64,000 bases of DNA from Gemmatimonadales bacterium (GTDB taxonomy: Bacteria; Gemmatimonadota; Gemmatimonadetes; Gemmatimonadales; GWC2-71-9), in contig JBJXGT010000004.1 in NCBI GenBank assembly GCA_046160105.1, positions 2,816 to 66,815 of the forward strand, read 5' to 3'. Below the pieces are notes generated by a model. That model did not search any database. It worked only from the letters and a program-made list of their open reading frames with translations, and was not told the origin of the DNA. How positions within the stretch are numbered: the first letter of the stretch is position 1; each line of letters opens with the position of its first letter. Both the position numbers and the translations under genes were made by a program. Of the stretch, positions 5,489 to 52,633 are shown one piece after another.

Positions 5489-6329
5489 CGCCGCGGGCGT
5501 GGCCCTGACCCGCCGCCACGAGCTGGGCCTCAGCTTCCTCGAGGCGGGCCACGGGACCCCCGTGGTCCTCCTGCACGGCATTCCCGGCTCCGCGCTCGCC
5601 TGGGCGACCGTCGGCGAGCGGCTGGCTGGGGATTACCGCGTGGTGATGCCCGACCTCCTCGGCTTCGGTCGGTCCGATCCACCGAGCGGGGACTACTATA
5701 TGGAGGCGCAGGCTCACCGGGTCCGGGAGCTGCTCGAGCGCCTCGATATCGCGGAGTTCGTGCTCGGGGGTCACGATTTCGGCGGTCCGATCGCCCTGAC
5801 CCTGCGGCGCCTCTACCCCGAGCTGCGGATTCGAGCGCTGATACTGTCCGCGACCAACCTCTTCACGGATACCTACGTCCCACCGCCGCTCCGTCTCGCC
5901 CGTTTCCCATCGTTCGGCACGCCGTTGTTCTGGCTCTTCGCGGGAAACCGCTGGGGATTGCGGCTGATGTACGAGGCCGCGACCGTGCAGAAGCGGGAGG
6001 TCCCGTGGGATCGGTTTCGCCGCCACCTCACGGCGTCCGGCGTGGATCTGACCCGGCGGATCTTTCAGCGCAGTCTCGGCGATCTCGAGACCAACTATCG
6101 GGCGATCGAGACGCTCCTGCCCGACCTCGGGGTGCCGACGCTCGTCCTGTGGGGAGACCGCGATCCCTTTTTCGGGGTGTCGGTCGGGGAGCGGAGTCAT
6201 CGGGCGATTCCGGGCTCGGTCTTCCGGGTATTCCCCGAGACGGGCCATTTCGTCCCGGAGGAACAGCCCGGCCGTGTCGCGGACGAGATCCACGAGTTTC
6301 TAGCGGCGGTGAAATTGAGATGCACATGA
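5463..6329 (+). CDS. alpha/beta hydrolase (haloalkane dehalogenase/epoxide hydrolase-like, Asp nucleophile)
   Basis: VVLLHGIPGS...PDLLGFGRSD...GGHDFGGPIA nucleophile elbow, with a C-terminal GHFVPEE. The start overlaps the end of the sigma gene by 26 nt; an alternative GTG start is at 5499. Confidence 0.85.
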   Translation: MTSSARPSSAAGVALTRRHELGLSFLEAGHGTPVVLLHGIPGSALAWATVGERLAGDYRVVMPDLLGFGRSDPPSGDYYMEAQAHRVRELLERLDIAEFVLGGHDFGGPIALTLRRLYPELRIRALILSATNLFTDTYVPPPLRLARFPSFGTPLFWLFAGNRWGLRLMYEAATVQKREVPWDRFRRHLTASGVDLTRRIFQRSLGDLETNYRAIETLLPDLGVPTLVLWGDRDPFFGVSVGERSHRAIPGSVFRVFPETGHFVPEEQPGRVADEIHEFLAAVKLRCT

Positions 6330-30925: not shown

Positions 30926-31010
30926 CGACGGTGGCGGGTCGACTAGTAACGGGGCGACTAGTGACGGGGCGGCAAGTGACGGGTCGGCAAGTGACGGGTC
31001 GGCGCCGTCG
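30926..31010. repeat. tandem 15-bp direct repeats (4 clear units plus degenerate flanking units)
   Basis: The units are CGACTAGTAACGGGG (30940-54), CGACTAGTGACGGGG (30955-69), CGGCAAGTGACGGGT (30970-84) and CGGCAAGTGACGGGT (30985-99). They are flanked by degenerate CGACGGTGGCGGGT and CGGCGCCGTCG. Confidence 0.85.
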
Positions 31011-41863: not shown

Positions 41864-41937
41864 TAGCAGGGGCGGGACTCGAACCCGCGACCCCGGCATT
41901 ATGAGTGCCGTGCTCTAACCAGCTGAGCTACCCTGCC
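41864..41937 (-). tRNA. tRNA-Met (anticodon CAT); could alternatively be tRNA-Ile2 (lysidine)
   Basis: The cloverleaf was folded by hand: acceptor GGCAGGG/CCCTGCT, D-arm GCTC-AGCTGGTTA-GAGC, anticodon arm CGGCA-CTCATAA-TGCCG, and T-arm GCGGG-TTCGAGT-CCCGC. CCA is not encoded. It lacks the initiator-type GGG/CCC anticodon stem. Confidence 0.9.
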
Positions 41938-49376: not shown

Positions 49377-49762
49377 CTAACGATCGCCCGCGACGCCGGG
49401 CCAGCGATAGCCCGTCGAGAAGGCGGCGTCGAAATCGAAGACGCCCTTGAAGTCCTCTTCCCGGTCGGTCGGCTGGGTCGACAGCAGGCCAACTTCGACC
49501 AGGGCAAAGACGATCCGCCCGAGGTCCTCCGTCTTCCGGATGCCCCAGTGCTCGAGGACCGGGCGGGCCATCAGGCCATACTGATCGAGGGCGTGCTCCC
49601 GGCAGGCGTGGGCCAACTCCGGCCCGGTGACGTGGCGCCGGGCGGTGAGCTTGTTCTGGAGGTACTCGATCGCCTCCAGCACGAACAGGTAGGCGAACTC
49701 GTCGTAGTGGCTCTCGGTCGCCCGCAGTTTGGCGACGAGCTCGGGGTTGAGGCGCATCTCGA

Positions 49763-49766
<4 letters not shown>
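49377..49766 (-). CDS. conserved hypothetical protein (possibly Minf_1886-like family)
   Basis: 129 aa. Its GTG start overlaps the glyA stop (GTGA). It sits between glyA and nnr. The family name is recalled from memory only. Confidence 0.6.
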
Positions 49767-51035: not shown

Positions 51036-51479
51036 TCAGTCCGTTTCCGTTTCGATCTTGGCGATCCGGCGGGCGTGGCGCCCTCCTTCGAACGGCGTGT
51101 CCAGCCACGTCTTGAGAATCTCGACGCCGTCGGCCTCGGTCACGAAACGCGCCGGCAACACCAGAACGTTGGCGTCGTTATGCTCCCGGGCCAGCTTGGC
51201 GATCTCGGTGTTCCCCACCACCGCCGCCCGGACCCCGTGATGCCGATTGGCGGCGTATGCCATCCCCAAGCCCGTCCCACACAGCAGCACCCCTCGCTGC
51301 ACCTCGCCCCGGGACACCTTGTCGGCCACCACGTGGGCGTAGTCGGGATAGTCGGTCGATTCGGCCGAGTGGGTCCCGACGTCGAGCGGGTCGTAGCCGA
51401 GCTCGGTGAGCACCTGGACGAGCCGCTCCTTGAGCTCGAAGCCAGCGTGATCGGCGCCGATCGGGATCGTTTCGGACAT
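51036..51479 (-). CDS. rpiB: ribose-5-phosphate isomerase B
   Basis: [14 protein letters not shown]...[17 protein letters not shown]...[12 protein letters not shown]. Confidence 0.93.
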
Positions 51480-51508
51480 GGGGGAAATCTGCGGTGCGCG
51501 GGGGTTGG

Positions 51509-51627
51509 GGCGCAAGGCGCAAGGCGCAAGGCGCAGGACTCAGGACTCAGGACTCAGGACTCAGGACTCAGGACTCAGGACTCAGGACTCAGGACTCAGG
51601 ACTCAAGACTCAAGACTCAAGACTAAG
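51509..51627. repeat. heptanucleotide tandem array: (GGCGCAA)x3 + GGCGCAG, (GACTCAG)x9, (GACTCAA)x3, GACTAAG
   Basis: Counted directly from the sequence: 17 consecutive 7-nt units between the rpiB start and the hbd stop. Confidence 0.95.
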
Positions 51628-51743
51628 GTTGACGGCGCGGGAGTCCGTCCGGAATCGGATTGGACGCCGGGCGCAAGGGCAAGGGTTGAGGTTTCAGCGG
51701 GGAGCCGCTGGTCGCAATCCGGGCGGTGGTCACCAGATCGGGC

Positions 51744-51785
51744 GAGTCCTGAGTCCTGAGTCTTGAGTCCTGAGTCTTGAGTCCT
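51744..51785. repeat. inverted heptanucleotide array (GAGTCCT/GAGTCTT)x6, reverse complement of the 51537-51620 units
   Basis: GAGTCCT GAGTCCT GAGTCTT GAGTCCT GAGTCTT GAGTCCT, ending 5 nt before the hbd stop codon. The reverse complement pairs with any six AGGACTC units of the first array with only two mismatches. Confidence 0.95.
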
Positions 51786-51790
51786 GTGCC

Positions 51791-52633
51791 CTAGTACCGA
51801 TAAAACCCCCGCCCACTCTTCCGGCCCAGATGTCCCGCCGCCACCATCCGGCGCAGCAGCGGGCAGGGACGGTACTTCGGATCGCCGAGACCCTTGGACA
51901 TCACCTCGAGGATCGCGAGGCAGACGTCGAGGCCGATGAAGTCGGCGAGGGCGAGCGGGCCCATCGGGTGGGCCATCCCCAGCTTCATCACCGTGTCGAC
52001 CGATTCCACCGTGGCAACGCCTTCCATCACCGTGTAGATGGCCTCGTTGATCATCGGCATCAGGATCCGGTTGGCCACGAAGCCGGGGTAGTCCTGGACC
52101 TCGACTGGGGTCTTGCCGAGCTCCTTGCCGATCGCCAGCACGGTGGTGGTGGTCGCATCGCTGGTGGCGTGGCCGCGGATCACCTCGAGCAGTTGCATTA
52201 CCGGGACCGGGTTCATGAAGTGCATCCCGATCACGTTCTCGGGCCGTTTGGTCCGAGCACCGATCTCGGTGATCGAGATCGAGCTGGTGTTCGAGGCGAG
52301 AATCACGTCCGAAGCGCAGACCCGGTCCAGGGTTTCGAACAGGGAGAACTTGAGGGGCGGATTCTCGGTGGCGGCTTCGACCACGAACTGCGCGGGCGCC
52401 GCGGCGTCGAGCGAAGTCGCGGTCTGGATCCGGCCGAGGATCTGGGTCGGCGCGTCGCCCGGGATGGCGCCCTTCTTGGCTTGACGGTCGAGATTCGCCT
52501 GGATCGTGGTCCGGGCCTTGTCGAGCGCCAGCTGGGAGACGTCGATCAGGGTGACGCTCCATCCGTACTGGGCGAAGACGTGAGCGATGCCGTTGCCCAT
52601 CGTTCCCGCGCCGATGACCGCCGCCTGCTTCAT
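51791..52633 (-). CDS. hbd: 3-hydroxybutyryl-CoA dehydrogenase (3-hydroxyacyl-CoA dehydrogenase family)
   Basis: MKQAAVIGAGTMGNGIAHVFA Rossmann motif, NTSSISIT, and HFMNPVPVMQLLEVI. Confidence 0.92.
   Translation of the reverse strand: MKQAAVIGAGTMGNGIAHVFAQYGWSVTLIDVSQLALDKARTTIQANLDRQAKKGAIPGDAPTQILGRIQTATSLDAAAPAQFVVEAATENPPLKFSLFETLDRVCASDVILASNTSSISITEIGARTKRPENVIGMHFMNPVPVMQLLEVIRGHATSDATTTTVLAIGKELGKTPVEVQDYPGFVANRILMPMINEAIYTVMEGVATVESVDTVMKLGMAHPMGPLALADFIGLDVCLAILEVMSKGLGDPKYRPCPLLRRMVAAGHLGRKSGRGFYRY

Follow-up and report, generated by a model that had tools for sequence, protein, structure and literature searches.

In many bacteria, tandemly repeated heptanucleotides outnumber every other kind of long simple repeat, and they have had no accepted function since the STRR elements of heterocystous cyanobacteria were described, reportedly by Mazel and colleagues, in 1990. 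As relayed by later papers, Mrazek et al. (2007) found heptamers to be the most abundant class of long simple sequence repeats (SSRs) and ascribed them to polymerase slippage (PMC4679880, PMC4692102). Each Xanthomonas genome carries ~180 GGGAATC-type heptamer repeats, mostly of four units, and 70-75 convergent array pairs that are able to form stem-loops or cruciforms; these heptamer repeats, most of them transcribed, differ in length and sequence from one species to another at a given site (Rehm et al., 2015, PMC4692102). A single heptamer, TAACTGA, recurs in Beggiatoaceae, cyanobacteria and Bacteroidetes, and a post-transcriptional role has been proposed for it (MacGregor, 2015, PMC4679880). 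Here we describe a block of ~310 nt in a Gemmatimonadota genome (Gemmatimonadales bacterium, contig JBJXGT010000004.1), in which two opposed runs of heptamer repeats separate the genes hbd and rpiB. The whole stretch of DNA that was analysed, 64 kb in length, is called the window, and coordinates refer to it unless a locus is named. We are confident that the block is an inverted pair of heptanucleotide SSR arrays, of the same kind as the convergent heptamers of Xanthomonas and the cyanobacterial STRR. As to the whole, we lean, with considerably less assurance, towards a slippage- and recombination-driven intercistronic foldback repeat that acts on the operon mRNA.

How is the block built? Read directly on the plus strand, positions 51509-51627 hold 17 consecutive units (three GGCGCAA, one GGCGCAG, nine GACTCAG, three GACTCAA and one GACTAAG), and after a spacer of 115/116 nt between the opposed GACTC-type arrays, six GAGTCCT/GAGTCTT units, the reverse complement of the GACTC-type units, occupy 51744-51785. 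An earlier, sequence-only reading of the window had described the runs unit by unit in this way, and its description is exact both by direct reading and by Tandem Repeats Finder (TRF). The latter resolves three arrays, which we name with respect to the mRNA of the minus strand. Arm B (51744-51786; 6.1 units, 88% matches), which is also recovered by pattern and inverted-repeat searches, forms the 5' arm (AGGACUC/AAGACUC) in the mRNA, and arm A (51534-51628; 13.6 units of (C)AGGACT, 96% matches) forms the 3' arm (CUGAGUC/UUGAGUC). Between them lies a loop of 115 nt (51629-51743) that is predicted to fold into small helices of its own. A second heptamer array of 3.9 GGCGCAA units (51509-51535; 100% matches), UUGCGCC in mRNA sense, adjoins arm A on the rpiB side. 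Any six units of arm A, be they among the nine perfect GACTCAG copies or the GACTCAA and GACTAAG variants beyond them, can be paired with arm B. As head-to-tail runs of units of 5-11 nt that are longer than expected by chance, all three arrays are long SSRs. They are the only period-7 arrays that Tandem Repeats Finder reports in the window, and a probe of two units, allowing up to two mismatches, matches 18 times in the window, always inside the block, where shuffled sequences lead one to expect 0.51 matches.

Both flanking genes are read from the minus strand. The upstream cistron is hbd, encoding a 3-hydroxyacyl-CoA dehydrogenase (51791-52633; Pfam 3HCDH_N, 7e-63, and 3HCDH, 3e-38), with 4 nt between its TAG stop codon (51791-51793) and the first arm. 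The downstream cistron, rpiB, encodes ribose-5-phosphate isomerase B (51036-51479; Pfam LacAB_rpiB, 3e-55); its ATG is found 29 nt from the last repeat, behind a leader at 51480-51508 (minus strand) that reads CCAACCCCCGCGCACCGCAGAUUUCCCCC in mRNA sense. According to the list of open reading frames (ORFs), glyA begins 1 nt past rpiB, and the gene string as a whole runs thiolase, Rce1-like protease, hbd, rpiB, glyA, an ORF of 129 aa, and yjeF. The block thus fills the gap from the hbd stop to the rpiB start on the minus strand, as had been claimed from the sequence, and coordinates, ORF list and Pfam matches agree on this.

The closest parallel to this arrangement, from Xanthomonas, consists likewise of intergenic tandem heptamers in a GC-rich genome, with convergent arrays and variation of length at the same site. 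Two close arrays, one on each strand, are present here as they are there, whereas the G-rich unit and the four-unit mode of Xanthomonas are absent: GACTCAG has no run of G, which makes the G-quadruplex/i-motif explanation inapplicable, and arms of 6.1 and 13.6 units contrast with a mode of four. Moreover, at 115 nt the loop exceeds theirs, the phylum is another one, and 64 kb hold a single locus as against ~180 per genome in Xanthomonas. The inverted heptamer-pair architecture has therefore already been published, and what is new is the phylum and the unit; the literature search returned no paper on GACTCAG arrays. The sequence-only reading was mistaken in supposing that a GC-rich genome offers no equivalent, given the Xanthomonas pairs (PMC4692102) and the GACTCAG arrays that we find in many GC-rich phyla. 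Its analogy with the STRR, on the other hand, is apt: both are tandem heptanucleotide arrays in non-coding DNA, and two cyanobacterial loci in the survey described below (L037 and L048) are inverted pairs of ~4 units with short loops. The STRR units CCCCAGT, TTGGTCA and CAACAGT, which are present in high copy in cyanobacterial genomes, differ from the GACTCAG and GGCGCAA of this Gemmatimonadota genome. TAACTGA resembles our block in that one heptamer recurs as tandem arrays in distant phyla, in intergenic DNA and near gene boundaries. Those arrays, however, are almost always direct, count 2-6 copies and sit just upstream of start codons, with one inverted case reported, whereas the window block has its two arrays in inverted orientation and is anchored at a stop codon.

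The origin of the block can be read from the same junction in relatives. Homology searches place the closest GlyA and RpiB proteins in Gemmatimonadota metagenome-assembled genomes (MAGs), and the gene string from thiolase to yjeF is conserved in the relatives, with overlaps or gaps of a few bases. Five repeat-free relatives (82-86% RpiB or 84-86% GlyA identity) have gaps between hbd and rpiB of 29 nt (L121), 26 nt (L122/L123), 18 nt (L124), 18 nt (L125) and 22 nt (L144), and none of these gaps contains a period-7 array. Because the junction is only 18-29 nt long in these five, the ~310-nt block is a lineage-specific addition to a compact operon junction. With its empty junction in five relatives and three repeat-bearing alleles, the locus provides a datable example of a heptamer array. 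The window allele, seen from hbd towards rpiB, has an arm of 6.1 units, a loop of 115 nt, an arm of 13.6 units and a TTGCGCC run of 3.9 units. In L119 (RpiB 99%, GlyA 97%), an hbd-side arm of at least 10 degenerate units is followed by an inverted loop of ~115 nt, an rpiB-side arm of 3.9 units and a decayed TTGCGCC run. L143 (RpiB 88%) has at least five AAGACTC units on the hbd side, a loop of ~95 nt, ~11 units on the rpiB side and one TTGCGCC unit. The hbd-side counts of both are lower bounds, as the L119 and L143 contigs start within that arm, which is a typical assembly break.

These two loci also settle whether the arrays might be an assembly artefact, a caveat raised from the sequence alone. 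L119 (JGI 3300039157) and L143 (ENA ERZ27296438) are independent assemblies from other samples, and because a heptamer hairpin occupies this junction in both of them, the block is no artefact, even though exact unit counts from short-read assemblies are uncertain. Repeat number does vary between relatives, as the earlier reading had envisaged, with rpiB-side arms of 13.6, 3.9 and ~11 units in the window, L119 and L143, respectively. In a further relative, L145 (RpiB 85%), the gap between hbd and rpiB measures 77 nt and contains a small hairpin of AGGAGTC/AGGGGTC units (L145:2505-2587), which represents either a second origin at this junction or an early stage of the same element. Metagenome contigs scanned with a pattern for the junction and a degenerate pattern for the rpiB N-terminus returned 0 matches, that collection evidently being without this clade.

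What has happened to the block since it arose? At the 4-fold degenerate sites of rpiB and glyA, the window and L119 are 78-79% identical. The L119 loop (L119:100-215) aligns with that of the window (51629-51743) only as its reverse complement, with a score of 51 versus 17 in the same sense (1000 shuffles: 15.6 +/- 2.3, maximum 25). The segment between the arms has thus been flipped between the two lineages, which suggests recombination or template switching between the inverted arms. Once inverted, the loops are roughly 70% identical, with indels, and because this value lies close to, and below, the 78-79% of the 4-fold degenerate sites, the loop drifts nearly neutrally and is not strongly constrained. 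No alignment of the window loop with the L143 loop was possible, and yet the L143 arms remain clean arrays of the same unit. The TTGCGCC run comprises 3.9 units in the window, is degenerate in L119 and is reduced to one unit in L143. Homogeneity of the arms is presumably kept by slippage and conversion.

In all three repeat-bearing alleles, the 30-36 nt next to the rpiB ATG (TTGCGCCCCAACCCCCGCGCNCCGCARATTTCCCCC) are almost invariant, with few differences over ~36 nt (window 51480-51515; L119:270-306; L143:205-243). Judged from this comparison, the leader would be under selection, and it probably carries the start signals of rpiB. A box of the form nAnnTTT, 4-6 nt before the rpiB ATG (TACCTTT in L121, TAGCTTT in L124, CAGATTT in the window), is the sole feature common to the repeat-bearing leaders and the short gaps of the repeat-free relatives, and may be a start signal of this Shine-Dalgarno-poor clade.

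The simplest way to account for such behaviour is that the block is a functionless mutational by-product, namely a slippage-born heptamer microsatellite that acquired an inverted copy by template switching and is tolerated, with an effect on the mRNA that is negligible or slightly harmful. Near-neutral drift of the loop, to the point that alignment fails at 88% RpiB identity, is what one would expect of it, and so are arm lengths that vary widely between alleles and the lack of the block in most relatives. It is also the sole heptamer array in 64 kb, and in viral contigs control heptamers are as frequent as GACTCAG: we rejected a special status of this unit since (GACTCAG)x3 gives five stretches there, compared with 10 and 2 for two heptamers of the same composition. 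Nevertheless, structure and homogeneous arms were kept through a divergence that randomised the loop (window versus L143), and L145 has a different small heptamer hairpin at this junction. Furthermore, an operon transcript that contains a near-perfect RNA duplex of ~50 bp would hardly be left unaffected by it, and similar hairpins elsewhere are distributed non-randomly, as detailed below. On balance, we regard a mere by-product as possible but rather doubtful.

Variation between alleles could alternatively point to a switch at the level of DNA, either an inverton or a slipped-strand contingency locus that tunes rpiB-glyA expression. The sequence-only reading had raised a length-variable switch of this kind, and the inverted loop and differing unit numbers fit it, although the inversion is seen between lineages and not within one population. 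The genes concerned, however, encode housekeeping enzymes, the scan detects no promoter-like site in the loop or the arrays, and conservation of the loop sequence is lacking. Only metabolic or housekeeping genes lie immediately next to the block, none of them encoding a recombinase, and one inversion over ~21% neutral divergence is expected from passive recombination between 40-nt inverted repeats. A switch is thus highly improbable, whichever of its two forms is considered.

We next consider the foldback repeat as RNA. An inverted-repeat search finds arms of 47-49 nt that are 92-94% complementary in several registers, and the minus-strand RNA of 51470-51800 has a predicted folding energy of -163.8 kcal/mol, far below that of its shuffles (-102.8 +/- 5.5; z = -11.2), which bears out the potential for a long hairpin noted earlier from the letters. 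The outer stem of the predicted fold has ~50 pairs, among them three G-U pairs, with three unpaired A residues, and includes the hbd stop codon in paired form. Isolated arms, by comparison, form 2-bp helices only (a 31-nt arm reaches -3.0 kcal/mol, and arm B -3.9 to -7.9 kcal/mol). The corresponding regions of L119, L143 and L145 also fold more stably than their shuffles (z = -3.5, -6.6 and -5.8, respectively). A consensus scan of 51300-52000 returned no site resembling an intrinsic terminator, and no U-tract follows the stem, the sequence past the 3' arm being GCGCCUUGCGCC.... The earlier suggestion of a terminator or RNA-processing site has accordingly lost its first half as far as a canonical intrinsic terminator is concerned, whereas a 3'-end or processing role at the RNA level fits the position of such hairpins behind stop codons. 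The block contains no sigma-70-type promoter by consensus scan, the promoter type of this phylum being outside the consensus used. At the gathering threshold, Rfam yields a single tRNA in the window and nothing in the block; relaxing the threshold to E <= 1 gives one chance match of the block, to VA RNA, at 28 bits against a cut-off of 62, and a known RNA family was rejected.

Which precedents exist for such a stem? REP sequences were reportedly shown by Newbury and colleagues in 1987 to stabilise mRNA, and Bertels and Rainey are said to have described REPIN elements in 2011. The Correia and ERIC elements and other MITE-like hairpins are long inverted repeats that are transcribed together with their neighbours and either serve as targets of RNase III or change the stability of the mRNA; they have defined ends, target-site duplications and an internal sequence that is conserved, and our block shows none of these. 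REP doublets and BIMEs contain non-homologous inter-REP segments, and intercistronic hairpins of this kind alter termination (PMC2817692). REP, BIME and REPIN elements share with the window block the inverted doublets, the unrelated segments between the repeats, and the extragenic location, often between co-transcribed genes. Hairpins of REP/BIME in mRNA protect the upstream cistron and affect termination, and they provide the best working model for the stem in the window. Each REP, however, is an imperfect palindrome with a conserved 5' tetranucleotide and a link to RAYT, whereas an arm in the window is a non-palindromic tandem array.

To place the block in a wider context, we draw on a survey in which one genome per species was scanned for (GACTCAG)x3. 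It gave at least 118 loci, several MAGs contributing many loci each, and the numbers that follow refer to the 118 listed loci. Among these matches are members of the Acidobacteriota, Planctomycetota, Gemmatimonadota, Chloroflexota (Thermomicrobiales), Cyanobacteria, Bacteroidota/Balneolaceae, Actinomycetota and Proteobacteria. Seven is the commonest tandem-repeat period, with 380 rows as opposed to 148 for the next, period 9. Neighbouring period-7 arrays at most 400 nt apart are inverted in 61 cases, direct in 11 and unrelated in 71, and an inverted partner within 400 nt accompanies 72 of the 165 seed-class arrays, a direct one 17 of 165. The median arm length is 4.4 units, with half of the arms within 3.8-5 units, and loops range from 4 to a few hundred nt; in both respects the window example belongs to the upper tail. 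No homology between the loops of different hairpins is detected by BLAST at 1e-3, and the hairpins of 18 survey loci match no Rfam family. Quite different units can adopt the same build within one genome, as in L031, where four of them occur in 8 kb. The excess of inverted over direct pairs, the 4.4-unit modal arm and the position at stop codons show the class to be non-random, which speaks against a pure mutational by-product.

Several observations concern individual members of the survey. The Thermomicrobiales MAG SMAG_U524 (L028, L072, L088, L102) has six loci of the form (AGGACTC)4AGT...ACT(GAGTCCT)4 in the same phase, with unrelated loops of 49-78 nt, many of which have a hairpin of their own; other hairpins on its contigs use the units CGAATGA, AGTGACG, AGGCGTT and GGAGTCG. 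In a Blastocatellia MAG, a 250-nt array of ~36 units (L015:2210-2459) mixes AGCACTC and AGGACTC in blocks and has a short inverted partner 40 nt upstream. CCCN1-2CCC or its complement occurs in 15 of 46 loops, compared with 1.9 expected, usually directly after the ...AGT end of the first arm (for example L025:6757-6775, L035, L060:3711-3721, L062:6189-6206, L073 and L096), and the 12-mer ACACCCGCCCAG is shared by two different Acidobacteriota MAGs. A general unit rule of the form AGTNNNN was considered and discarded: among units at least three mismatches from the seed, 29 of 121 contain AGT or ACT, which does not differ significantly from shuffles (21.8 +/- 4.0).

Identical arms at many loci raise the question whether we are dealing with a REPIN/BIME- or MITE-like mobile element that is non-autonomous and whose arms would be terminal inverted repeats for a transposase encoded elsewhere. 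The six Thermomicrobiales loci, with arms of identical length and phase around unrelated loops, would be in keeping with this, REP doublets and BIMEs likewise have non-homologous inter-REP segments (PMC2817692), and relative to the repeat-free relatives the block is an insertion. Against mobility stand its single copy in 64 kb and the lack of a visible target-site duplication, the available empty sites being too diverged to align. Arms that are unequal (6 versus 13.6 units) and vary at the same site imply slippage in place rather than transposition, a single arm is not palindromic (-3 kcal/mol for 31 nt), unlike each REP, and many different units share the architecture within one genome. We therefore consider transposition improbable. 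To our knowledge, no transposase has been linked to heptamer-array hairpins.

The survey also bears on the possibility that the repeats serve as a cluster of GANTC sites for a CcrM-type methyltransferase or for a regulator that senses methylation; the sequence-only reading had pointed out the CcrM/HinfI-type sites. The clustering it described is real, with 20 sites in 51500-51795 compared with 3.5 per kb in the rest of the window. Such a density is, however, a trivial consequence of the unit sequence, and the same architecture is built elsewhere from the GANTC-free units AGTGACG, CGAATGA, AGGCGTT, GGTTGGC and GCACTCA. Outside the block, GANTC occurs in the window at expectation (222 observed, 231-271 expected), and window ORFs of at least 200 aa contain no N6/N4 methyltransferase motif ([DNS]PP[YFW]). 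A role in methylation is, on this evidence, scarcely credible.

Where do these structures sit relative to genes? Gene context was assigned by a home-made frame caller that reproduces the true context of the window and was applied to GC-rich or AT-rich loci only. Inverted pairs with both flanks classified (n = 32 among the listed loci) lie between co-directional genes in 26 cases, convergent genes in 3 and divergent genes in 3. Of 41 classified sides, 31 have the stop codon of the upstream ORF within +/-10 nt of the structure and another 9 have it inside, while the downstream start codon is found at a median distance of 22 nt and up to 177 nt away. The structures hence look anchored to 3' ends, and the window repeats the pattern, with a stop codon 4 nt away, hairpin, leader and start codon in that order. 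Stem-loops occur at the 3' ends of Rho-independent and Rho-dependent transcripts alike, across bacteria (PMC13613805). In L062 (5762-6237), an RNase P RNA gene (Rfam RF00010, 276 bits) is followed, 9 nt past its 3' end, by one of the survey hairpins (6142-6237). Pairing of a Shine-Dalgarno with an anti-Shine-Dalgarno sequence (AGGA with UCCU) was dismissed as the basis of the arms, as both arm orders are found (28 versus 17 and 11 versus 6), other units lack the motif, and a Shine-Dalgarno sequence is missing from the rpiB leaders of this clade.

We envision a scenario whereby the block arose in one Gemmatimonadota lineage, inside the hbd-rpiB junction, and whereby its arms have since gained and lost units and stayed homogeneous by replication slippage and conversion. 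A second unit, TTGCGCC, would have expanded from one copy to four, and the loop would have flipped once, by recombination or template switching between the arms. This part of the explanation, origin and turnover, is largely established by the comparison of alleles. Given that hbd, rpiB and glyA are tightly packed on one strand, a read-through transcript would have to contain both arms, which could then form a near-perfect double-stranded RNA stem of ~50 bp from the hbd stop codon onwards. This stem would then form or protect the 3' end of the hbd message, a reading that follows from the 3'-end anchoring in the survey and the REP/BIME precedent, and it would be a likely substrate of the double-strand-specific RNase III. 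Expression of rpiB-glyA might consequently be uncoupled from that of hbd and rely on the conserved leader of 30-36 nt by the ATG. We put forward this RNA-level role of the stem tentatively, as something short of an even chance. Its consequence for the window is modest, in that this lineage probably does not express hbd and rpiB-glyA as a coupled unit.

A number of points weigh against the scenario of a foldback repeat that acts on the operon mRNA. With an empty promoter scan and no U-tract, the expression of rpiB-glyA below such a stem is unaccounted for. A tolerated repeat with no function would account just as well for a loop that drifts neutrally and for arms that differ so much in length. 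Our statements on transcript ends, on cleavage by RNase III and on read-through at the stem are all inferred. The loop inversion rests on two short-read assemblies, even if a mis-join as its source is unlikely because reads are usually longer than the shorter arms (27-42 nt). Finally, the survey was seeded with one unit, so that the class statistics depend on that seed and on the matches listed, and the frame caller sees only genes at most 60 nt from a structure, leaving 40 of 122 sides unclassified.

A more far-reaching alternative is that heptamer-array hairpins of all these phyla constitute one class of element with a dedicated origin, a module of 3'-end or intercistronic RNA. Its members would be built from arms of ~4.4 units (30-33 nt) with an inner end ...AGT and a loop that often opens with CCCRCCC, and would be placed directly behind a stop codon or the 3' end of an RNA gene; they would be generated by a mobile or enzyme-driven process, or maintained by a factor that reads the 7-nt periodicity. 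Three features go beyond plain slippage, namely a mode of ~4.4 units per arm whichever unit type is used, an arm-end phase that stays constant in several phyla, and the CCCRCCC run, and as slippage does not explain arm length, arm-end phase or C-run, they support a dedicated class. That the mode is the same whatever the unit also undercuts the G-quadruplex rationale given for Xanthomonas. A corollary is that, if the class were real, the window would hold an overgrown, recombining example of it, and the STRR and the Xanthomonas repeats would be the same thing. We nonetheless think a single dedicated class unlikely. Independently of this, the survey yields rules that extend beyond the published cases, in that inverted pairs greatly outnumber direct ones, the ~4.4-unit mode does not depend on G-quadruplex potential, the hairpins sit tightly behind stop codons in operons, and the loops carry a C-run. 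Should these rules hold in an unbiased census, they would argue for a role in RNA 3'-end formation or operon decoupling.

Some further features of the window and its relatives deserve mention. On the plus strand, an ORF at 51478-51759 translates the repeats as TQDSGLR; a protein-coding reading of the block was rejected, this frame having no Pfam match and running antisense to the rpiB start (51478-51479) and leader. The second strongest tandem repeat of the window lies at 30931-31003 and consists of 4.9 copies of the 15-nt unit GTGACGGGTCGGCAA (87% matches, TRF score 90). The tRNA gene found by Rfam is located at 41864-41937 on the minus strand. Between rpiB and glyA of L124, a run of N at L124:3871-3969 marks a scaffold gap, and the apparent spacing of 151 nt there is not real sequence. 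Lastly, the ORF of 129 aa behind glyA (49377-49766, minus strand) overlaps the end of that gene by 4 nt and has no Pfam match, and its position is kept in all relatives, where it encodes 128-130 aa.

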